Virus record (IMG/VR): IMGVR_UViG_3300037155_000096
Direction: 5' to 3' (one strand)
DNA: 64,000 nt
Origin: a virus
Of the stretch, positions 571-33,804 are shown piece after piece. The notes beneath the pieces were generated by a model. It did not search any database, was not told where the DNA came from, and saw only the letters and a list, made by a program, of their open reading frames with translations. The translations under genes were made by a program, and so were the position numbers. Positions within the stretch are counted from its first letter, which is position 1. Each line of letters starts with the position of its first letter.

Positions 571-1254
571 TTATAAGAGCCGTGGACGTGTCGTCCTTAG
601 CGTCTCAAAGGGCACGCTATCAATCAGTATATGTATCGGCGTGATTCTTTTTACTGCTTCTTCAAGCGATTTATTAAATATCGTATCGGTGGAATCATAT
701 CCCTCCACCTTTATTCTAAGAAGACTTTTAATCTCAGATAACGGACTCAGAAGATGGCTTTCCGCCAATAGATTCGAGCCGGCCTTCATGGGTACTCCCT
801 CTGACTCCCCATCCATTCCACAAGTAAGTTGAATCAGTGTCGTTCCGAGTATATAATGATCGCCGCACTTGGGCCAGTATTCGTAAATTTCCGTAATGTC
901 CGAATTTTTATCGTAACTGCTTATCAGGGTTTGAAAGGCGAGTCGCGTGCCTTTTCTATCAATCCATTTCGAAGCCAACTGAACAAATGCCTTTTGCTTG
1001 TCCATGAAATTTCTATCAACCTGGATATTAAAGTTCTCCGCCATATCCGCTAATTCGCTATCTCTTACCGTGGATCCTCTTTTGGACGCCAGAAGGTCAT
1101 CTGCCGCTAGCTTGAACATCGCCTGTGCTTCCGCCATGACATAAATAAACTTCTTCATGTTATCATCAGCCGCATGATGAGCTGGTATCTGAGACATCAT
1201 GGACTGTGCGATTTCTTCCGTACCCTTGCTATAAACAATATCCATCTGTTCCAT
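571..1254 (-). CDS. Baseplate wedge / tail protein I-like (P2 gpI-type)
   Basis: KWIDRKGTRLAFQTLI resembles the gpI-type 'y..KGT...i...l' motif; lies downstream of the baseplate J-like genes. Confidence 0.55.
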   Translation of the reverse strand: MEQMDIVYSKGTEEIAQSMMSQIPAHHAADDNMKKFIYVMAEAQAMFKLAADDLLASKRGSTVRDSELADMAENFNIQVDRNFMDKQKAFVQLASKWIDRKGTRLAFQTLISSYDKNSDITEIYEYWPKCGDHYILGTTLIQLTCGMDGESEGVPMKAGSNLLAESHLLSPLSEIKSLLRIKVEGYDSTDTIFNKSLEEAVKRITPIHILIDSVPFETLRTTRPRLL

Positions 1255-1898
1255 TACATCCTCCCCGTAAAATGTATTCCGGTTTCATCCTGACACGATT
1301 CTTCAATGGTGACCGTCAGACTTGCTTTCTTAGGCGTTCCGTCCATGAAGAACTTCTGATATTCAATCTGGGCATCTTTTACTATGCCCGTAATGACGTT
1401 GTTCACTTTTCCTACTCTCGATAAGAACTTCATGAGATTCATGGTCTCCGGAAATATTACTCTCACCTGCGGAGGCGGCTCTACGGAGGTATCGGAATAC
1501 TTTGGATAAGTCAATGCCCTCAGCCAGCCCAATGCTCGATCAATGTCTATATTGTAGTTATCAACCTTTTTTATCGTGTCTGCCCCACTGTCCTTGTAAT
1601 CGAATGCGTTTGTGTCAGACGGCTGGGGAAGCAATGCATTATTCACCGAGCCAAGAGACTCCCTGAAAAGCGTTATTGCAAAACTTATTGTCCTGCCGCC
1701 ACCTGACTGCCACATCTGTAAAGGATGCGAACCACCAGGTGTCTGCTTGCTGTCCCAATTCGTAGAGTTTCCATCAGAGATCGTCTCCGGAAAGAACTGA
1801 AGGATCATACGATTGACGCCCTCGATGTTTCCCTTGACCATCTTAATCTTGATATTCGCCTTCTGACTTCTGTCCATGAATTCGATTTTGGTCGACAT
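1254..1898 (-). CDS. Tube-like baseplate initiator (contractile-injection-system tube protein family)
   Basis: QFFPETISD...W...GGSHPLQMWQSGGGRTISFAITLF and PPPQVRVIF motifs typical of CIS tube/initiator proteins. Confidence 0.6.
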   Translation of the reverse strand: MSTKIEFMDRSQKANIKIKMVKGNIEGVNRMILQFFPETISDGNSTNWDSKQTPGGSHPLQMWQSGGGRTISFAITLFRESLGSVNNALLPQPSDTNAFDYKDSGADTIKKVDNYNIDIDRALGWLRALTYPKYSDTSVEPPPQVRVIFPETMNLMKFLSRVGKVNNVITGIVKDAQIEYQKFFMDGTPKKASLTVTIEESCQDETGIHFTGRM

Positions 1899-2650
1899 TA
1901 CAATACCTCAACCGTAAATACTTCATCCAACGAACCAACCCCCTTACTGATTATATGCTCACTCCTGGCTAACAAAAGATTGCCGTACTCATCGATTCCA
2001 CTTTGAGAGTTCTCCACGTAACTGTCGCCACTTGGAAGGTTAATACTTACATTGGCGCTTGAGAGTCCATCTACCAGCTGTATAGCCTCATATATCTCCG
2101 AAAGATATAACGACTGATTGAAATCCCTTCCCCTGACCAGATCAATCATAACCTGCTGAACGTTCCGCCTGACCTCATCCGCCACATAACCTTTTTTTAC
2201 CCTGATGATCGCATCTAAACAGCACTCCACAATCATACCCATTCCCGATGTACTCTCATGCGTTACATTTATAAGCCTTCTTTCATCCAGGTATCCCGAT
2301 AACTCTTCAAGCAAATCATTTCCAGGGGCTACATAAAAACCGTCCTTATCGTATGTCAATGCATAGACGACAACATGGTTAGCATTGCCAGTCGCGGAAA
2401 TTATTCCGCTTACATATGATTTTATCTTTCCCACATCAAAACTTGCGGTCTGCAGGAATGTCTTGATCTCATTTAAGTCAGATTGCATCACCGTTAATTT
2501 CGCTGCATACATATCCCTGAAATTCTTTAAGGTCGATATGGCTGTATTCATCGCACTTACTGAAGTTGCGGCTCTAAGTTTCAGAGCGGAGATCATCGCT
2601 TGCGCATTATTCATCCTCACCGTGAGTTCTATATTTGTCATAATATTCAT
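1898..2650 (-). CDS. Baseplate wedge (J/gp6-like), C-terminal half, preceded by ~85 aa helical segment
   Basis: NHVVVYAL...LLEELSGYLDERRLI...VRRNVQQVMIDL...LYLSEIYEAIQLVDGL is the C-terminal part of baseplate J/gp6. TAATG overlap with upstream ORF and GAGG 10 nt before the ATG. Confidence 0.65.
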   Translation of the reverse strand: MNIMTNIELTVRMNNAQAMISALKLRAATSVSAMNTAISTLKNFRDMYAAKLTVMQSDLNEIKTFLQTASFDVGKIKSYVSGIISATGNANHVVVYALTYDKDGFYVAPGNDLLEELSGYLDERRLINVTHESTSGMGMIVECCLDAIIRVKKGYVADEVRRNVQQVMIDLVRGRDFNQSLYLSEIYEAIQLVDGLSSANVSINLPSGDSYVENSQSGIDEYGNLLLARSEHIISKGVGSLDEVFTVEVL

Positions 2651-4389
2651 TATAATATTGCCTCTGATTGCTGTATGTTCGTAGATACAAGTTTGAGCGC
2701 ATTTTCAATGGCTGTCAGCTGATCCCTTGTCGCCTGAACCTCACCCAACGCTGCTGTCATCACATCTATTAACTCTCCATACTGGTTTTCAAAATCATTA
2801 TCCAGAATAATTTCATTTGCCCTGCCATCAATGACAGTCGAGATTGTCGCCACATCATTTATAAAACTTCCGATTATCGTCGCCAATGGTGAACCGTCAT
2901 CGAGTCCTCTGATAACCTTAGCCTTGGCTTTGGCTATCCTCCCATAAGCTCCCGAGAATGTCGTAGCCAGCGTATCCCAGTCTTCCTGTGTAACCGCCCT
3001 ATCAGAGGTACTGAAAAACTTCGGAGCATTAGCCTTGATCGATTCAAGTGATTCTGCATCTCCGCCACCGACTGCTTCCACTATGTTTGTTACCGTGAAT
3101 TTCACCGTTCCTATTCCCCCTGGACCTGCAACTGTATCAACTGCTTTCGTAATTACGTTAGAAGCCACATTACCAGTCTTGCCCACTCCGATCCTCTTAT
3201 ATACTGTAATGACACTTCCTGCTTCAGGCACCATACCGGTGAGTCCGCTTCCGAAGATAACTGCCGGACTTTCACCGAGATAGTCTACCTCGAATTGTGC
3301 GAGACTTCCGAACTCCAGAGTATCGACCTCCGGCCATTCAGTTTCGCCCACAAACACCTTCACTCCCTTTAACATCCCCTTGCCCTTCGGAATTCCGCCA
3401 AGAATCATTATCTGATTCGATTGTCCCGAGCCTACAAAGGTTTCTACGATGGTCTCTCCCTGAATAACCGCAACATCAGCATAAATATCTTTGAGTAGCG
3501 AGGTCATAACGACATCTGCTGCGGTCTCGAATATAATGCCATTGTCCGTTTTGCATTTCAAACCTTTTGGGAAGGTCACCGTGCCGTGTCCATCACCGAT
3601 CTGCTCAGAGAGCGTCACTCTTATTTTAGAACCTGACGCCACCATCGGGGAGGGCTTATAATTCAAATAGCGTGACAAATCTGAAGCGCTTGAAACAAGT
3701 TTTGCGTCCTTCATTCTCAGTTCGTTTGCAATGAAATTCAGATACCAGGTCATTCCCTCCGACTGATATGACAACACCTCTACCAATAACATTCCTAAAT
3801 CACTTGTAACGAAATTGTTGAAATCATCACCGAAATTTTTCTTTATCAGACTCATTGCCTCATCAGTATAAGTCCACATATCCTTGGCTAAGAAATTCTT
3901 TCTTAGAAACGAATCTCCTGTCATTCTGGAGGAGTCGCTGATTATGCTTCGGTCTTCATACACCTGCCAGTTTGCTATCTGATAATCAAGGACGCCCGCC
4001 TCTGCATGTGTGCCGTCAAAATCATCTGAGGTCGGAGCAATCGTAAATGTACCTCTGCCCATACCTTCATTTGAAGCACCGCCCACTATGACATACACTC
4101 CCTTATTAAGTCCGCTGAGCACATGTAATATCTGCCCGATATATTGATCCGCCTCCGAAACTCCATACGTGGCGACTATAAACGAACCGCTCGATATATC
4201 CGTGAAGGTTAGTCCCGTGTAACCGTGTCCGCTGGCTACTCCACCACCGAGTCCGAGACATATGTAAGCCTTGTCGCCCTGGAAGCCTTGGTTCTTCAGG
4301 TTACTATGTAAGTTCATGGTAAGTCCGCATAATGCATACACAACCGGAGCCTGAACAAACGTGGTGTCTTCTACTATTGTTAAAATCAT
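2650..4389 (-). CDS. Baseplate wedge (J/gp6-like), N-terminal part with ~160 aa N-terminal extension
   Basis: DFNNFVTSDLGMLLVEVLSY, YLNYKPSPMVAS, GGGDAESLESIKANAPKFF and RAVTQEDW motifs of T4 gp6/baseplate J. Confidence 0.85.
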   Translation of the reverse strand: MILTIVEDTTFVQAPVVYALCGLTMNLHSNLKNQGFQGDKAYICLGLGGGVASGHGYTGLTFTDISSGSFIVATYGVSEADQYIGQILHVLSGLNKGVYVIVGGASNEGMGRGTFTIAPTSDDFDGTHAEAGVLDYQIANWQVYEDRSIISDSSRMTGDSFLRKNFLAKDMWTYTDEAMSLIKKNFGDDFNNFVTSDLGMLLVEVLSYQSEGMTWYLNFIANELRMKDAKLVSSASDLSRYLNYKPSPMVASGSKIRVTLSEQIGDGHGTVTFPKGLKCKTDNGIIFETAADVVMTSLLKDIYADVAVIQGETIVETFVGSGQSNQIMILGGIPKGKGMLKGVKVFVGETEWPEVDTLEFGSLAQFEVDYLGESPAVIFGSGLTGMVPEAGSVITVYKRIGVGKTGNVASNVITKAVDTVAGPGGIGTVKFTVTNIVEAVGGGDAESLESIKANAPKFFSTSDRAVTQEDWDTLATTFSGAYGRIAKAKAKVIRGLDDGSPLATIIGSFINDVATISTVIDGRANEIILDNDFENQYGELIDVMTAALGEVQATRDQLTAIENALKLVSTNIQQSEAIL

Positions 4390-28310: not shown

Positions 28311-29426
28311 TTAGCTTAACCTCTTTTTCAGGTCTTCGAAGACCGCTATCAAATGTTTACAAACTTTCTTTTTCATTCCTGGGTTGGTCTTTAACGGTGG
28401 CTCCATGATCGAATTTACTATATGGCTTGCGTTGGTCTTCCATAAACTGTATTCATTTTCAAATGTGAAATTTTCGCAGTTGCAATGCAGTATTACATTC
28501 TGGCTGATCGTAGTTAATCCCTTAACATTCGGCAGAGGCTTTATATACTGTCTGTGAACGTGATGGTTACTTTCTGTAACCGTCTTATAAATTAACTTGC
28601 CAGCTTGGGTGATGTTCAGAAGTGTCGGTTTAATATCTTCCGCCCGCAGCTTAAAACGCCTGGGCGTTGTTTTCATTAACTGAGCTATACTTCTTTCTTC
28701 CATCATAGCTTGAATCAAGGACTCTACCAGTCCCCATTTACCGTCAGCATATTTCTGAAGATTCTTGAGCTTAATATCTTTCTGTTTCTTCAGACGTTCG
28801 CTCTGAATGGTCGTGATAAGCCCAGCAATCTTATATTTCAGATTCTTGACAGCTTCCTTATCGGAAGATGCTGTAGTCTCGATATAACCGTCTTTGTTGG
28901 GAGTCTCATCAGTGCGGACTGCATTAGTGAACGCTTTATACATGACTACTTCTTCCTCCACGGCATTCTTCTTCAGAATGTAAGTCATATACTCTATCCC
29001 CTTACTGGTATGCATTTCAGTTTTGTCCAGCTTGAAGCCTTCGTTCTCTGCGAACTTATCGATTAACGCTTTATAAAGCTTGGCTCTGGAGTTCTTGCCG
29101 CCCTCTTCATACTTCGCGATAATCCAGATCTCCTCAATGGTCTTCACCTTCTTCACATAATCTTTTGCGATCTGGATTACCGTGGATAGTATTCGGAATG
29201 CATCACCCTTTCCTGTAACTTCAGCCGAGCCCGCATCATCATCAAAATGAATTGCGAACGACTTACCGTTATCCCTGATTTTCGTTAAGACTTTGAATGG
29301 CTCTCTACCGTCCGGCTGGAAGGCGAGAGTACGAGTACCGTCTCCGGGCAGTAAATTCCCCAGATACTTGTAGGGCTTCGCAAGAACCTCTATCAACAGA
29401 TCTAATTCTGAACTCATCGTTAACAT
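28311..29426 (-). CDS. Composite hypothetical protein with C-terminal SWIM-like Zn finger
   Basis: LHCNCENF...NPGMKKKVCKHL (CxC...CxH); N-terminal TGKGDAFRILSTV...SRAKLY domain. Confidence 0.55.
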   Translation of the reverse strand: MLTMSSELDLLIEVLAKPYKYLGNLLPGDGTRTLAFQPDGREPFKVLTKIRDNGKSFAIHFDDDAGSAEVTGKGDAFRILSTVIQIAKDYVKKVKTIEEIWIIAKYEEGGKNSRAKLYKALIDKFAENEGFKLDKTEMHTSKGIEYMTYILKKNAVEEEVVMYKAFTNAVRTDETPNKDGYIETTASSDKEAVKNLKYKIAGLITTIQSERLKKQKDIKLKNLQKYADGKWGLVESLIQAMMEERSIAQLMKTTPRRFKLRAEDIKPTLLNITQAGKLIYKTVTESNHHVHRQYIKPLPNVKGLTTISQNVILHCNCENFTFENEYSLWKTNASHIVNSIMEPPLKTNPGMKKKVCKHLIAVFEDLKKRLS

Positions 29427-29520
29427 ATTTTATTTCACATAAAGTCATATCGTTGACATCCGTTCTTGCTTGCCTTATCCCATTCAAATCTTTACTTATA
29501 ATCACTGCATAATACGTGTC

Positions 29521-29534
29521 GTGTTATATAACAC
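29521..29534. promoter_or_regulatory. Perfect 14-bp palindrome GTGTTATATAACAC (candidate operator)
   Basis: Self-complementary; intergenic, downstream of the terminase locus. Confidence 0.45.
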
Positions 29535-29552
29535 CAATAACCGTTCCAAGAT

Positions 29553-29642
29553 TTACTTCGCTGGTACCGGCTCTGGTTTCTTTTCTAACTGCTGGATGAT
29601 TTCGTCCAGCTCTACAGTTAGGTCTTTCAGTTCAGTTGCCAT
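29553..29642 (-). CDS. Unannotated 29-aa microprotein MATELKDLTVELDEIIQQLEKKPEPVPAK
   Basis: Manual translation; strong SD AGGAG upstream; 10/15 identity to the 32828-32902 peptide. Confidence 0.65.
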   Translation of the reverse strand: MATELKDLTVELDEIIQQLEKKPEPVPAK

Positions 29643-29658
29643 AACATTTCTCCTTATT

Positions 29659-30822
29659 TTAATCTACTTGAACAAACCCATCAAAACCTGAATCGCCCTC
29701 ATCGTCAGCCTCCGCCGAAGCACTTATTCTTTCGCCCGGCTTACTTCTCGATGACTCCGAATAAAATGAAGTCCCTTCACCTGGGTATTTCGTCGCCAGC
29801 GTGAATACTACCGCAGCGATTGCGTCGCTTACATCCTTTGAATAATCATCGGGATGGTCGACTTTTCCCTTATATGCATTAAATTCTAATCTTCTTAATT
29901 CTTCCTGAGCCGGCTGATACGGGTACATTTTTAATCTGTCTTCATATAATGTTTGCTTCAATGTATCATAAGCCTTCATCGGACGGTCTACCGACACTAC
30001 TTCCGACTCGTATCCGCGGGCTTTGAACGCCTGGATGCTGTCCGCAGACTGGTACGAATCCATCGATATGTATCTTATGGGCATTCCCATTTCATGCAAA
30101 GCGTATATCAACTTCCTGATATCCTGGAAAATTATATCTTCTCCCATCCTTGGATGAATCCTTAACATCAGGTCGATTTGAATCAGCGGGCGTGTTTCCA
30201 CCGTTACTATCGGACCGACCTTTTTCCGGATCTCTTTGTATCCGTAAATGTGCCCTATTGCTAAACCCGTGGCATCTCCCCTCAATGAAGCGTCAATATG
30301 GACATGACGGGATGCCTCTGGGTGAAATCTTGGTACTCTTTCACCAAACTCGTTAATCTTAAATAATGCTTCTGTCAGGAACTTACCTCTGTCAGTCATA
30401 TCCCAGACTTCCTGAGTAAACGGATGCTGATAACTGTCATCGACTGCATCCATGATCTTCTTGCGGTTCCTTATGAACGGCGTAATAGCCACCGTACTTA
30501 CTCCGGCAAGATCTCTCAATGCTGTATCGGTATCTCTCATAAAATCATCATAGAAGTCCATGGGTACATCGATAATCTGAACTTCTTCCATACCCTCGTA
30601 TTCAGTGACATCTTCTCCATCTTCCAATACCTTAGAAGATAATACTGAATTACCGACCAGCACCTTAAACCTCTCAGGCATGAATATCTTAGCATCCTTA
30701 GCTCCCCACTGACTGTTATGGACTACTAATCCATTCGCCAGCGTGAAATTATGGCAACTGTCTTCCTCGATATCATAGACATCTTCATTACCATCAAATT
30801 CTATCTTTGCGATACGCTTCAT
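29659..30822 (-). CDS. terL: Terminase large subunit, C-terminal precursor (IntC + nuclease domain)
   Basis: First 36 aa are intein blocks F/G (VYDIE..CHNF...VVHN/S). RNase H-like HIDASLRGD, MDSYQS and DHPDDYSKDVSDA motifs follow. Confidence 0.9.
   Translation of the reverse strand: MKRIAKIEFDGNEDVYDIEEDSCHNFTLANGLVVHNSQWGAKDAKIFMPERFKVLVGNSVLSSKVLEDGEDVTEYEGMEEVQIIDVPMDFYDDFMRDTDTALRDLAGVSTVAITPFIRNRKKIMDAVDDSYQHPFTQEVWDMTDRGKFLTEALFKINEFGERVPRFHPEASRHVHIDASLRGDATGLAIGHIYGYKEIRKKVGPIVTVETRPLIQIDLMLRIHPRMGEDIIFQDIRKLIYALHEMGMPIRYISMDSYQSADSIQAFKARGYESEVVSVDRPMKAYDTLKQTLYEDRLKMYPYQPAQEELRRLEFNAYKGKVDHPDDYSKDVSDAIAAVVFTLATKYPGEGTSFYSESSRSKPGERISASAEADDEGDSGFDGFVQVD
30715..30822 (-). mobile_element. 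Split intein C-fragment (IntC, 36 aa, ends His-Asn; +1 Ser)
   Basis: MKRIAKIEFDGNEDVYDIEEDSCHNFTLANGLVVHN|SQW. Confidence 0.92.
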
Positions 30823-30823
30823 G

Positions 30824-31153
30824 TTATTTCAAGAATCCCGCTATTGCCTTGAGTTCTTTCGCAGAGAATATCCATTGCGATTGCTTGCCATTGAATTCCC
30901 CAATGAACCTGATACTGCCATCCTTTAATTTCTCCATGGTAGCATTGTCCAATACCAATACTTCTATAGTGCCGGCGTTCAACACTGGTTTCCCATCATC
31001 ACCAACGATAGTATCGCCCAGTTTCAATTTCGAATAAACTCCTTTCTCCGCCAATCTCTTTTCCTCCATAATCGAAGGGATCAAATCTTCCGGAACTTTC
31101 CCACCCAGTATTTCAAAATCTTCTGCCAGCGAACTTATTTTAACCTCTTTCAT
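30824..31153 (-). CDS. Hypothetical ORF nested between split-intein halves
   Basis: 109 aa; own SD (AGGAG); stop 1 nt before the IntC start. Confidence 0.65.
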   Translation of the reverse strand: MKEVKISSLAEDFEILGGKVPEDLIPSIMEEKRLAEKGVYSKLKLGDTIVGDDGKPVLNAGTIEVLVLDNATMEKLKDGSIRFIGEFNGKQSQWIFSAKELKAIAGFLK

Positions 31154-31162
31154 AACTTCTCC

Positions 31163-31654
31163 TTATGCTGCTTCTTTTTTAATAAATAACTTGTAATACG
31201 CCTTCAGATAGCCACCATACGTGCCTGTCGCTACCGCCAACTTGTTCATTTCGCTGTGGCTATACGTTATAACCTTGAAATAAACGTCCTTCTCAACTTC
31301 TCTTTTCAATACCAGCTCGCCCGTCACATCGAAATACTGACCTTTGTAGACGTTGAAAGCATGGTCAATCGGTATTCCGACTATATCTGCGAAGCCCTCG
31401 ACATATTCGACTCCCGATATGTGCGAAGCCACCTGATAAGCATTCTGGTAACACTGCTTCGCCTGGAACATTTTGATCAGCCTATAAACGTCATTGGCTA
31501 TTTCAGGGATCTTCTCTACCGAGACAACCTTCACCGCCTTCACTAATTTCGCCTGCCATGCATACAGATCTGAATCGCCAGTATAAAGTTTCGATATCAT
31601 TTCCAGATGGCTCTTGGGCGACTCTTCCGCTATATTAAAAGCTGAACAATTCAT
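31163..31654 (-). CDS. Transglutaminase/papain-like Cys-His-Asp protein nested between split-intein halves
   Basis: QCYQNA (C68), YVEG, HAFNV (H98), YFDVT (D109); start overlaps the IntN 3' end by 20 nt. Confidence 0.55.
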   Translation of the reverse strand: MNCSAFNIAEESPKSHLEMISKLYTGDSDLYAWQAKLVKAVKVVSVEKIPEIANDVYRLIKMFQAKQCYQNAYQVASHISGVEYVEGFADIVGIPIDHAFNVYKGQYFDVTGELVLKREVEKDVYFKVITYSHSEMNKLAVATGTYGGYLKAYYKLFIKKEAA

Positions 31655-32822
31655 CGCCCACCTTTAAGTTCTGAAGTTCCACATAAGTTAAATCGTTCAT
31701 AAGGAACGGATGCTCCTTCGTAGCTCTCACTACAGAGCCATCTTCCATCGTGATTTTATAAACAGGGACATTAACTCCTGTCCGCTGAGCTGAATGCCCT
31801 TTACCCAGAACGCCCTGACCCGTGGCTGGATCTACCGATACGGTCCTAAAATTCTCAACGCCGACTAAATCTTTAATAGCAATTATGCCCTTCAGCGGGA
31901 TCTTAATCGGAGTGTCGCCAGTTAAGCAATATTCTCTTACGAATACGTTGGGATCTTCTCTTGCCTCAGCAATTCTTCTTTCAGTAAAATCGGTCGTGGT
32001 TCTTTTGGATGAAACCAGAAACAATTTCCCTGGCATTTTTCCAAACTTGTTAAACCGGGACTTGATTCTACGACTTACCTGAGCATATAGTAACTCTGCA
32101 TTATCTACATGACCATGACGGGCATGTGAAGCCTTCATTTCCTTGCTCATAGCTCCCAAGAAGTTCGACTCATCCATGATTGCACCGATTGCGTTACTTC
32201 CTATACCTGCATTTGCCGTACTGGAAGCTGGAGTCGCCCATACGTTATTCGGGAATCTTATTTCCTTCTGAGTCAGTTTCGGTTTGAACTTCTCATTGAA
32301 ATACGGACTCATCGTGAGCATACCCTGAAGATCTTCGAAGATTACTTTACGAGCAGTCTGCTCTGACAATGAAATCGCCAGGAATGCTATCAGGGAATCA
32401 GGAGCCAATCCAAAAGACTTCTGCGGATTGCGTAAACAGCTCATCTCATAGAACACTCTGCAGGCAGCTATTTTAGCCATGTAGGTCTTGCCCCAGCCGA
32501 GTGAACCAGTTAAAATAACTTCATAATACTCTCCATTGAAGAGTTCTATCATGTCGTCAATTAGCTTCGGCCATAGATTATGCACCTTCCCGAAGTGGTA
32601 CGGATCTGTCAACCATGTTTCGATATCCACCATAGGTTCTTGGAACTCTAATTCGTTCATTAGTTCAAGTAACCCAGTTTTACCGCCGGTCATTTCAGCC
32701 ATAATAAGTTGCATCACTTCCATCTCTTCAGGTGAAAGTGACCTTACATCCCTCTTTAGAAGTTTCTGTACCTCCTCCGGAGTCTGTTTACTTATATTAC
32801 GACCATCAATGAGTTCTATCAT
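31635..32822 (-). CDS. terL: Terminase large subunit, N-terminal precursor (ATPase + IntN)
   Basis: Walker A TGSLGWGKT, Walker B IMDE, coupling motif LVSS; last 97 aa are intein blocks A/B. Confidence 0.9.
   Translation of the reverse strand: MIELIDGRNISKQTPEEVQKLLKRDVRSLSPEEMEVMQLIMAEMTGGKTGLLELMNELEFQEPMVDIETWLTDPYHFGKVHNLWPKLIDDMIELFNGEYYEVILTGSLGWGKTYMAKIAACRVFYEMSCLRNPQKSFGLAPDSLIAFLAISLSEQTARKVIFEDLQGMLTMSPYFNEKFKPKLTQKEIRFPNNVWATPASSTANAGIGSNAIGAIMDESNFLGAMSKEMKASHARHGHVDNAELLYAQVSRRIKSRFNKFGKMPGKLFLVSSKRTTTDFTERRIAEAREDPNVFVREYCLTGDTPIKIPLKGIIAIKDLVGVENFRTVSVDPATGQGVLGKGHSAQRTGVNVPVYKITMEDGSVVRATKEHPFLMNDLTYVELQNLKVGDELFSF
31638..31928 (-). mobile_element. Split intein N-fragment (IntN, 97 aa)
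   Basis: Y|CLTGDT block A; RATKEHPFL block B (TxxH); LKVGDEL end, then TAA. Confidence 0.92.
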
Positions 32823-32827
32823 TGGGA

Positions 32828-32902
32828 CTATTTCTTTTTATTAGTCGCGATTCTTTCAAGACTTTGAATAATCTCAGTCATTTCTTTTATTAGGTCTTTC
32901 AT
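32828..32902 (-). CDS. Unannotated 24-aa microprotein MKDLIKEMTEIIQSLERIATNKKK
   Basis: Manual translation; SD-like AAGGAAG upstream; homologous to 29553-29642. Confidence 0.65.
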   Translation of the reverse strand: MKDLIKEMTEIIQSLERIATNKKK

Positions 32903-32911
32903 AGTACTTCC

Positions 32912-33040
32912 TTATTTTATTAGTTCATTTAATGTCGAATAATGCGTTGCAATAGCTATCAGAATTAGAACCATCGAAAACAAACCGACAGCCCCAATCG
33001 TTGTTAGCCCAAACCCTATAACCCGTAAAGACTTGTTCAT
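32912..33040 (-). CDS. Small single-pass membrane protein (42 aa, MNKSLRVIGFG...)
   Basis: ATGA overlap with the upstream gene at 33037-33040; hydrophobic 25-aa stretch. Confidence 0.55.
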   Translation of the reverse strand: MNKSLRVIGFGLTTIGAVGLFSMVLILIAIATHYSTLNELIK

Positions 33041-33804
33041 TTCAGTAACACCATTTTGATTGCTGCCGTATGCTGATTTCCGTTTGCCCGCTTGGTCGTC
33101 ATTGCGAGGATATACACGCCGGCGTACCGACCGCGCCATTTGACCTCGTAACTGCCCTGTGTGCGCATTTCATCTGGGAATGACTCTATCTTACTCCCGA
33201 TGACATTATAGACCGTCAGTCTTACCTTACAGTCATAGGGGAGCGAATATCTGATCGTCGTCTCTTGATTAAATGGATTCGGGTAGTTCGACACGGTAAA
33301 TTCCTTGGGTAACATTGACACCACGATAATATTCGAATGCACCGAGCCACCATCGTTGTCCACCTGATTCAGGCGATAAGCAATAACCCCTGCCATGGAG
33401 AGCTTATCTGAGAACATATACTCTTTACCCTTATTGCTATTCCCTTGGGCCGCCACGAAGCCGATCTTCTCCCAGGGACTGCCCATCCAAAGTTTTCTTT
33501 CTATCTCAAATCCATGAAAATTTACTTCCGTCGCTGTCACCCACACAAGCTCAACGTAATTGTCTCTTAAAGTTTTCCCCTTAAAAGAGATCAGTTGCAC
33601 TGGTAGCGGCTCCTGATACTGATAAGCTCCAAGATCCGGATGATTATAAGGCACTGGATTTCCCAGTATATCCGTCTTAATCCGTTGTCCATTTACCTTT
33701 ACGGTATCGCCAGCACCTCTACATGGGCTATTCCACTGAAGCTGCTGCGAAAACATCTGGCACGACAAAACAACTATTAGCCATATCCATATCATCCTTT
33801 TCAT
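33037..33804 (-). CDS. T9SS (Por) C-terminal sorting-domain-containing protein, passenger-less
   Basis: Signal peptide; PDLGAYQY; PLPVQLISF; TATEVNFHGFEIER; YRLNQVDNDG; NYPNPFN.ETTIRYSLP; LTVYNVIG; GVY; KMVLLK end. Confidence 0.85.
   Translation of the reverse strand: MKRMIWIWLIVVLSCQMFSQQLQWNSPCRGAGDTVKVNGQRIKTDILGNPVPYNHPDLGAYQYQEPLPVQLISFKGKTLRDNYVELVWVTATEVNFHGFEIERKLWMGSPWEKIGFVAAQGNSNKGKEYMFSDKLSMAGVIAYRLNQVDNDGGSVHSNIIVVSMLPKEFTVSNYPNPFNQETTIRYSLPYDCKVRLTVYNVIGSKIESFPDEMRTQGSYEVKWRGRYAGVYILAMTTKRANGNQHTAAIKMVLLK

Follow-up and report, generated by a model that had tools for sequence, protein, structure and literature searches.

A terminase large subunit gene fractured by a predicted canonical split intein that encloses two cargo genes in an uncultured phage

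Introduction

Here we describe a 64,000-nucleotide (nt) stretch of viral DNA (IMG/VR record IMGVR_UViG_3300037155_000096; the whole stretch is called the window in the following), in which the gene of the terminase large subunit (TerL) is divided between two distinct open reading frames (ORFs). The upstream frame, termed N-ORF, carries the N-terminal part of TerL and ends in an N-terminal intein fragment (IntN), and the downstream frame, termed C-ORF, begins with a C-terminal intein fragment (IntC) and continues with the remaining part of the terminase. Judging from the sequence, we consider it likely, with a probability of roughly 85%, that both fragments form a class 1 intein which is naturally split and functional, located in the only recognizable TerL gene of an uncultured large phage that has a portal of the T4 type. 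An earlier note on this DNA, made from the letters and the translated ORFs, had read the locus as a TerL gene fractured by a naturally split intein with a fragment layout similar to gp41-1, so that TerL has to be assembled by protein trans-splicing. This core reading, with a canonical intein of the DnaE/gp41-1 type, is supported by exteins that abut in other phages, by the tiling of both frames on one profile hidden Markov model (HMM), by the junction of a relative that lacks the intein, by a mini-intein at the same site of another relative and by the intact catalytic residues.

Results

Both Halves of One Intein Are Present at the Break

The last residues of the N-terminal extein are VFVREY and they are directly followed by Cys299 (CLTGDT, codon 31928-31926) as the first residue of IntN. 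Block B (TKEH) is located at residues 368-371 of the N-ORF (31721-31710), and the fragment ends with VGDELFSF in front of a TAA stop codon at 31637-31635. In the C-ORF the motif VYDIE with the block F Asp is found at residue 15, CHNF at residue 23, and VVHN (block G) closes the fragment at Asn36, followed by Ser37 as the Ser+1 residue (SQWGAK, codon 30714-30712). All residues of class 1 splicing chemistry are therefore present (Cys1, TxxH, block F Asp, His-Asn and Ser+1) and they are unchanged across the variants, in agreement with the earlier note, which had listed the same residues as intact.

Profile searches, which the earlier note had proposed as a check, match both ends. NCBIfam intein_Nterm (TIGR01445) gave 33.7 bits (cut-off 24.5) for residues 299-374 of the N-ORF (model positions 1-82, starting at Cys299) and intein_Cterm (TIGR01443) gave 21.2 bits (cut-off 15.6) for residues 14-37 of the C-ORF. 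Both scores exceed the curated cut-offs and the ends of the models coincide with the predicted splice sites at Cys299 and Ser37. The single Pfam profile Intein_splicing (PF14890) is shared between both frames, with positions 11-92 covered by the N-ORF and positions 122-155 of 155 by the C-ORF. Among solved structures, the best match of both halves is the DnaE intein 7qil (E-values of 0.002-0.04), and IntC can be aligned without gaps to the 36-residue IntC chain of Npu DnaE (4lx3_B). A search of the window with an HMM that was based on three related inteins detected a single IntN, a single IntC and no further intein piece.

The most direct comparison is provided by a relative (L001, see below), which carries a contiguous mini-intein of 137 amino acids (aa) at the same position of TerL (P0013). 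If the two halves of the window are joined, the resulting 133 aa align with this mini-intein from end to end with 47% identity, and the split point corresponds to a gap of four residues in a loop of the global alignment.

The Exteins Add Up to One Terminase That Is Broken Within the ATPase Domain

Each ORF was compared by tblastn with 50,697 phage records and matched about 350 of them; these records are largely shared between both queries and mostly annotated as terminase large subunit. In uninterrupted genes the two matches abut, as in Agrobacterium phage JP1 (5088-5921 and 5910-6845) and Vibrio phage SIO-2 (41927-42658 and 41042-41911). An HMM of this TerL clade, based on 29 uninterrupted relatives, gave the same picture: the N frame covers positions 1-299 (E-value 6e-124) and the C frame positions 295-620 (E-value 7e-131), and no second copy of the clade was detected with this model in the window. 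A search of 5.8 billion proteins identified P0002 as the closest uninterrupted relative (652 aa, 62% identity). This protein lacks the intein, and its sequence at the site, VFVREY|SQWGAKDAK, equals the junction predicted for the ligated product.

The N-extein contains a Walker A motif (GWGKT, residue 109), a Walker B-type motif with the catalytic Glu (MDES, residue 216) and a C-motif (VSSK, residue 270); motifs in the nuclease region of the C-extein are HVHIDAS (residue 173), DSYQS (residue 255) and KVDHP (residue 320). On the sequence level the clade did not match solved TerL structures, and the TerL of the window showed no match to Terminase_6N or Terminase_6C. Because of the missing match to solved structures, the fold of P0002 was modeled with AlphaFold2 (AF2; mean confidence, pLDDT, 84). 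Foldseek related this model to the TerL proteins of HK97, Sf6, D6E and T4 with E-values from 1e-15 to 5e-13. Domain-wise comparison (VIA-align) matched the ATPase domain (residues 64-374) to the ATPase of P74-26 TerL (Z 19.0, root-mean-square deviation (rmsd) 2.6, 219 aligned residues) and the nuclease domain (residues 373-605) to the nuclease of G20c TerL (Z 17.8, rmsd 2.5, 180 aligned residues), and the acidic residues of the nuclease domain are invariant (alignments A3 and A4).

The model also suggests where the protein is interrupted. The last strand of the RecA-like core (293-298) ends at the intein site 298/299, which is thus located inside the ATPase domain of the model, where the lid adjoins this core. 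For DEAD-box helicases, the alignment of the RecA-like core with the model extends up to residues 298-300. According to the model, the break therefore separates the RecA-like core from the lid and the nuclease, so that neither product contains a complete ATPase domain and neither half is expected to work alone as packaging motor. The earlier note had assumed a division into an ATPase and a nuclease half; the distribution of TerL over two genes holds, but the modeled border is shifted into the ATPase domain, to the junction of core and lid. In the literature we found no description of an intein insertion site at this junction.

Inteins Occupy Three Sites in This Terminase Clade

The relative L001 (logan SRR19193838_23867; P0007, P0013) has a TerL about 61% identical to that of the window. 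Its contiguous mini-intein is located after VFVREY, here called site C, exactly where the intein of the window is split. Furthermore, the TerL of L001 (1852-5619) is itself fractured, at the Walker B motif (DE|T), by a different split intein with an IntN of 107 aa and an IntC of 35 aa, which encloses a gene for a 327-aa endonuclease with NUMOD3 and TnsA-like parts. The same split arrangement at Walker B was found in L010, in which site C is empty. Empty alleles of the clade are represented by P0002, P0003 and P0023.

To this we added 68 relatives from IMG/VR, which were inspected for in-frame, stop-free inteins. Insertions of 287-938 aa were found at Walker A (L014, L031, L044, L050 and L051) and at Walker B (L036, L046, L047, L056 and L068), and none of the 68 had a further intein at site C. 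The truncated relatives P0015, P0019, P0030, P0050, P0053 and P0059 contained no intein pieces. Taken together, this TerL clade is an intein hot spot with three sites. An intein at site C is known only from two lineages; in one of them it is contiguous, whereas in that of the window it is split.

Some of these insertions are unusual in themselves. L046, L047 and L056 (about positions 922-3737 each) share a 938-aa, in-frame and stop-free insertion at Walker B (DE|C...VVHN|T), which is either a very large intein or a set of nested elements, and L036 and L068 have insertions of 428-464 aa at this site. At Walker A, L044, L050 and L051 contain an in-frame intein of 333 aa that starts with Ala (GWGK|ALGLDT) and ends with THN|S; such a start with Ala1 brings class 3 inteins to mind. 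L031 has an intein with Cys1 at the same Walker A site and in L014 the insertion is located slightly upstream.

Organization, Recurrence and Selection of the Four-Gene Array

The coordinates of the locus are summarized in Table 1. The earlier note had described an IntN of 97 aa behind the N-terminal part of TerL and an IntC of 36 aa, 812 nt apart and out of frame, and all of this was found again at the same positions. The gap between the stop codon of the N-ORF and the ATG of the C-ORF extends from 31634 to 30823, and the offset of 2000 nt (2 modulo 3) places both ORFs in different frames, with an ATG of its own for the C-ORF. The spacer is coding throughout: it contains two genes, ORF163 and ORF109, and all four genes of the array are co-oriented and tightly packed. 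The ATG of ORF163 overlaps the last six codons of IntN, 20 nt ahead of the IntN stop codon, with an alternative start at Met19 (31600). ORF163 and ORF109 are separated by 9 nt including a GGAG ribosome-binding site, and the TAA of ORF109 ends 1 nt ahead of the ATG of the C-ORF (TAA-C-ATG). A gene with a Portal_T4 match (Pfam) follows two genes downstream of the fractured terminase. A scan for promoters and terminators gave counts no higher than in shuffled sequences.

Table 1. Features of the fractured TerL locus and codon-wise comparison with related contigs (pN/pS, ratio of non-synonymous to synonymous change).
Feature	Coordinates	Strand	Extent	Basis	pN/pS	Substitutions
N-ORF (TerL N-extein and IntN)	31635-32822	(-)	395 aa			
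TerL N-extein, RecA-like ATPase core	31929..32822	(-)	aa 1-298 of N-ORF	tblastn, TerL-clade HMM, P0002 model	0.02-0.18	
IntN	31638..31928	(-)	97 aa	TIGR01445, Pfam PF14890, 7qil, alignment with P0013 mini-intein	0.06-0.10	3-5 synonymous, 1 non-synonymous
ORF163, cargo gene 1	31163..31654	(-)		family, invariant triad, AF2 model, structural neighbours		
ORF109, cargo gene 2, orphan	30824..31153	(-)		GGAG upstream; relatives of at least 91% identity only	0.11 (0.03 vs L011)	24.5 synonymous, 10.5 non-synonymous
C-ORF (IntC and TerL C-extein)	29659-30822	(-)	387 aa			
IntC	30715..30822	(-)	36 aa	TIGR01443, PF14890, gapless alignment to 4lx3_B	0	3-6 synonymous, 0 non-synonymous
TerL C-extein, ATPase lid and RNase H-like nuclease	29659..30714	(-)	aa 37-387 of C-ORF and stop	tblastn, TerL-clade HMM, P0002 model	0.00-0.09	

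ENA and JGI metagenomes contain the complete four-gene array on at least 13 contigs, with eight places from eight sample accessions among the matches listed, and it is also present in the IMG/VR record UViG_3300050020_000041. These copies have 94-98% nucleotide identity to the window, and the longest contig bearing the N-ORF has a length of 179 kb. A codon-wise comparison of the window with nine of the array contigs revealed mostly synonymous changes in every part, and hence purifying selection on all six segments, i.e., both exteins, both intein halves and both spacer genes (Table 1).

Within this comparison ORF163 stands out by a very low synonymous diversity (pS 0.011 compared with 0.1-0.36 in the adjacent segments), and we considered that it might be a recently swept mobile piece. 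This explanation was rejected, as a 100-nt identity track revealed that the whole region of 5.5 kb is a patchwork and low diversity is not specific to ORF163. In detail, between 28311 and 33804 identical 100-nt windows alternate with windows of 10-25% divergence (e.g., 30940-31140, 32240-32640 and 29740-29940) in comparison with L002-L006 and L012. Such patchy divergence is typical of recombination among co-circulating relatives.

Two micro-ORFs directly flank the fractured terminase, at 32828-32902(-) with 24 aa and at 29553-29642(-) with 29 aa. Both have a helix of the type KDL...E..EIIQ.LE; the downstream one is preceded by AAGGAG as ribosome-binding site, and in L003 and L004 it is predicted as a gene of 29 aa. 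Upstream of the terminase, at 33037-33804(-), we found a gene with a C-terminal Por_Secre_tail domain (type IX secretion), and two such genes are arranged in tandem at L002:513-2385. Such a domain suggests that the host belongs to the Bacteroidota/Ignavibacteriota group.

The Spacer Holds a Predicted Enzyme and an Orphan Gene

Fractured phage genes often enclose a free-standing homing endonuclease, as the earlier note had pointed out. In the spacer of the window, no homing-endonuclease family was recognized in ORF163 or ORF109 with Pfam, PHROG and NCBIfam. To look for an endonuclease remnant, the NUMOD3/TnsA-like proteins from L001 and from L010 were compared by tblastn with 30700-31750 and with the whole window, and no match better than an E-value of 0.2 was obtained.

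ORF163 belongs to a large family, predominantly of viral origin, with 391 matching clusters (50% identity; E-values up to 1e-3); its members are mostly stand-alone proteins of about 150-170 aa and in some cases domains within proteins of 900-1800 aa. In all 51 sequences of an alignment, Cys68, His98 and Asp109 are conserved. The family profile gave no match to PDB sequences and Foldseek gave no match at an E-value of 0.001 or below. A structural comparison of the AF2 model (pLDDT 93) by VIA-align yielded neighbours with modest Z-scores of 5.8-4.4: LapG, the pseudomurein endoisopeptidases PeiW/PeiP, TglA, protein glutaminase and arylamine N-acetyltransferases. As this list consists throughout of transglutaminase/papain-like enzymes with a Cys-His-Asp triad, ORF163 reads as a predicted member of this group and not as a nuclease.

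The relatives of ORF163 are found in a different context. At 20 other IMG/VR loci (±5 kb) and on two short contigs we detected neither an intein piece nor a TerL of the clade of the window; one weak match in L098 is the only ATPase-like signal in their neighbourhood. Elsewhere, the family is therefore free-standing and without a link to inteins or TerL, which fits a one-off insertion of cargo. In P0099, P0127 and P0132 the ORF163 domain occurs alongside NUDIX, Zeta-toxin-like kinase and DUF5661 domains, suggesting that it serves as an enzymatic module of large multidomain proteins of phages or bacteria. ORF109 remained without any match in Pfam, PHROG, NCBIfam and Atlas, and its relatives among the 5.8 billion proteins, all with at least 91% identity, are confined to the lineage of the window phage; a reading as prohead-core-like protein therefore finds no support.

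Discussion

Alternative Explanations

Some points speak against a functional split intein. The net charges of IntN (-1) and IntC (-5) show no obvious complementarity, as far as net charges can indicate, although charge complementarity between the halves has been described for other split-intein pairs (PMC2677866). The numbers of substitutions inside the intein halves are small, though all point in the same direction. In addition, a second intact terminase of another clade is possible elsewhere in the genome, which has about 180 kb judging from the longest contig; a related fragment of 77.8 kb contains no match to Terminase_6N or Terminase_6C. The charges are also a point that favors a different use of the intein, in which the halves have lost splicing and hold the two TerL pieces together as a non-covalent dimerization module. 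Split genes whose products work without ligation do exist, as exemplified by NrdA of phage Aeh1, which is split by a homing endonuclease gene and has no inteins (PMC2677866). Against this, all residues of the splicing chemistry are kept, with no non-synonymous change in IntC and one in IntN among the variants, and the ATPase would probably be impaired by a HINT domain of 133 aa inserted where the RecA-like core meets the lid. For that reason we regard a mere dimerization module as unlikely. It is even less plausible that the fractured gene is a decaying or dispensable copy, whether the phage is defective or encodes another terminase elsewhere. The relative G001, which is just 42% complete, could be taken as a hint in this direction, but decay is difficult to reconcile with the purifying selection on six segments, the recurrence of the array in many samples, the standard place beside the portal gene and the lack of any other TerL in the window and in the 77.8-kb relative.

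The two remaining explanations concern the spacer and the assembly. Group I introns often interrupt phage genes, and a spacer that is removed as RNA intron, or bypassed by recoding, would restore a single polypeptide with a contiguous intein. A search against Rfam over 29000-33500 at E-values up to 1 gave no intron and returned a chance snoRNA-like match only, and two genes occupy the spacer, of which one comes from a family of 391 protein clusters. As the halves are also out of frame and the C-ORF starts at its own ATG, we consider removal or bypass of the spacer highly improbable. An assembly chimera, a concern that the earlier note had raised itself, has to be kept in mind for every metagenome-derived sequence such as the window; the arrangement was however assembled independently at least 13 times from ENA and JGI samples, with sequence differences of 2-6%, and the probability of an artifact is close to negligible. 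A functional split intein thus remains the explanation that we favor.

Comparison With Known Split Inteins

It has been known since 2009 that TerL genes can be fractured by split inteins, and two of these inteins have been shown to trans-splice (PMC2677866; PMC11766414). Terminases in general are a common target of inteins (PMC4760082). Particular to the window are a canonical split of the DnaE/gp41-1 type in TerL, the site between core and lid, two ordinary genes as cargo and a contiguous homologue in a near relative.

In phage metagenomes, Dassa et al. (2009) described genes that are fractured by split inteins (e.g., gp41-1, NrdJ-1 and IMPDH-1) for eight types of host protein, including one terminase that is atypically split with an IntC of 122 aa (PMC2677866). 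The window resembles these genes in several aspects: the gene of an essential phage enzyme is interrupted by a split intein while its two parts have kept their original place and orientation, the split is canonical between the N-terminal blocks and block F, and the upstream stop and downstream start codons are located at the ends of the inserted DNA. The lengths reported there (IntN 88-105 aa, IntC 33-54 aa) bracket the 97 and 36 aa found here. In contrast, their defining feature is a free-standing homing endonuclease of the GIY-YIG or Vsr-like type, whereas the spacer of the window consists of ORF163 and ORF109, and their terminase locus belongs to a different TerL lineage.

The naturally split inteins GOS-TerL and AceL-TerL reside in gp17-like terminases and trans-splicing has been demonstrated for them (PMC2677866; PMC11766414). 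Together with the consensus intein Cat-TerL they share with the window the TerL host protein, the origin from uncultured phages and the assembly of the packaging enzyme by trans-splicing, which is predicted for the window. As the earlier note had mentioned for AceL-TerL, the split is atypical, with a short IntN and a long IntC (PMC11766414). The fragments of GOS-TerL and AceL-TerL have lengths of 25-37 aa (IntN, block A only) and 104-122 aa (IntC), compared with 97 aa including block B and 36 aa in the window (PMC11766414; PMC2677866). They also use Ser1/Cys+1 or Cys1/Cys+1 instead of Cys1/Ser+1, and the TerL of the window has no Terminase_6N or Terminase_6C match.

The DnaE inteins of Npu and Ssp share with the window intein the fragment layout and the IntC of 36 aa, and DnaE provides the best solved-structure match of both halves. 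On the other hand, the similarity is low (E-values as given above), the host protein is another one and Ser-Asn/Cys+1 is found instead of His-Asn/Ser+1. The halves of cyanobacterial DnaE are encoded far apart in the genome, whereas those of the window are only 812 nt apart in a putative single operon. The closest comparison remains L001, with a homologous intein after VFVREY in a TerL of the same clade. There, site C is contiguous and the fracture is at Walker B instead, in the classical layout of a fractured gene with an endonuclease, which the spacer of the window lacks in recognizable form.

Proposed Mechanism and Origin of the Split

Based on the tight packing of the four genes, we infer that TerL-N with IntN, the Cys-His-Asp enzyme, the orphan and IntC with TerL-C would be translated from one late mRNA. 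IntN and IntC would then dock to form one HINT fold, in which a thioester at Cys299 would be attacked by Ser37 of the second protein, followed by cyclization of Asn36 and an acyl shift. The predicted product is a TerL of 649 aa with the junction VFVREY-SQWGAK. The earlier note had also suggested that the split might act as a timing control on packaging; with four tightly packed and co-oriented genes, we see no support for this idea.

As for the origin of the split, a nuclease-free cassette of two genes most probably ended up in the loop of a mini-intein, at the position usually taken by the homing endonuclease. The 5′ end of such a cassette would provide the stop codon of IntN and its 3′ end would adjoin the start codon of IntC. 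A direct change from mini-intein to split intein by insertion of cargo into the endonuclease loop, not by way of a homing endonuclease, is a tentative scenario that we consider possible rather than probable. The order of events may have been either this one or the loss or replacement of an endonuclease.

Implications for Inteins and Terminases

The canonical split in combination with the Cys1/Ser+1 pair, which is also the nucleophile pair of the fast intein gp41-1, makes the window intein a candidate tool for protein ligation. One site in one TerL clade offers a natural series: the site is empty in P0002, P0003 and P0023, holds a contiguous mini-intein in L001 and is occupied by a split intein with cargo in the window. 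At a second site of the clade, a classical endonuclease-containing split intein is found. This series bears on the origin of split inteins and on the question whether the breakage of an intein depends on a homing endonuclease. If the split indeed arose by insertion of cargo, intein loops can offer accessory genes a safe place to land; the inserted genes would be locked into the terminase operon and may even have a role tied to packaging or splicing.

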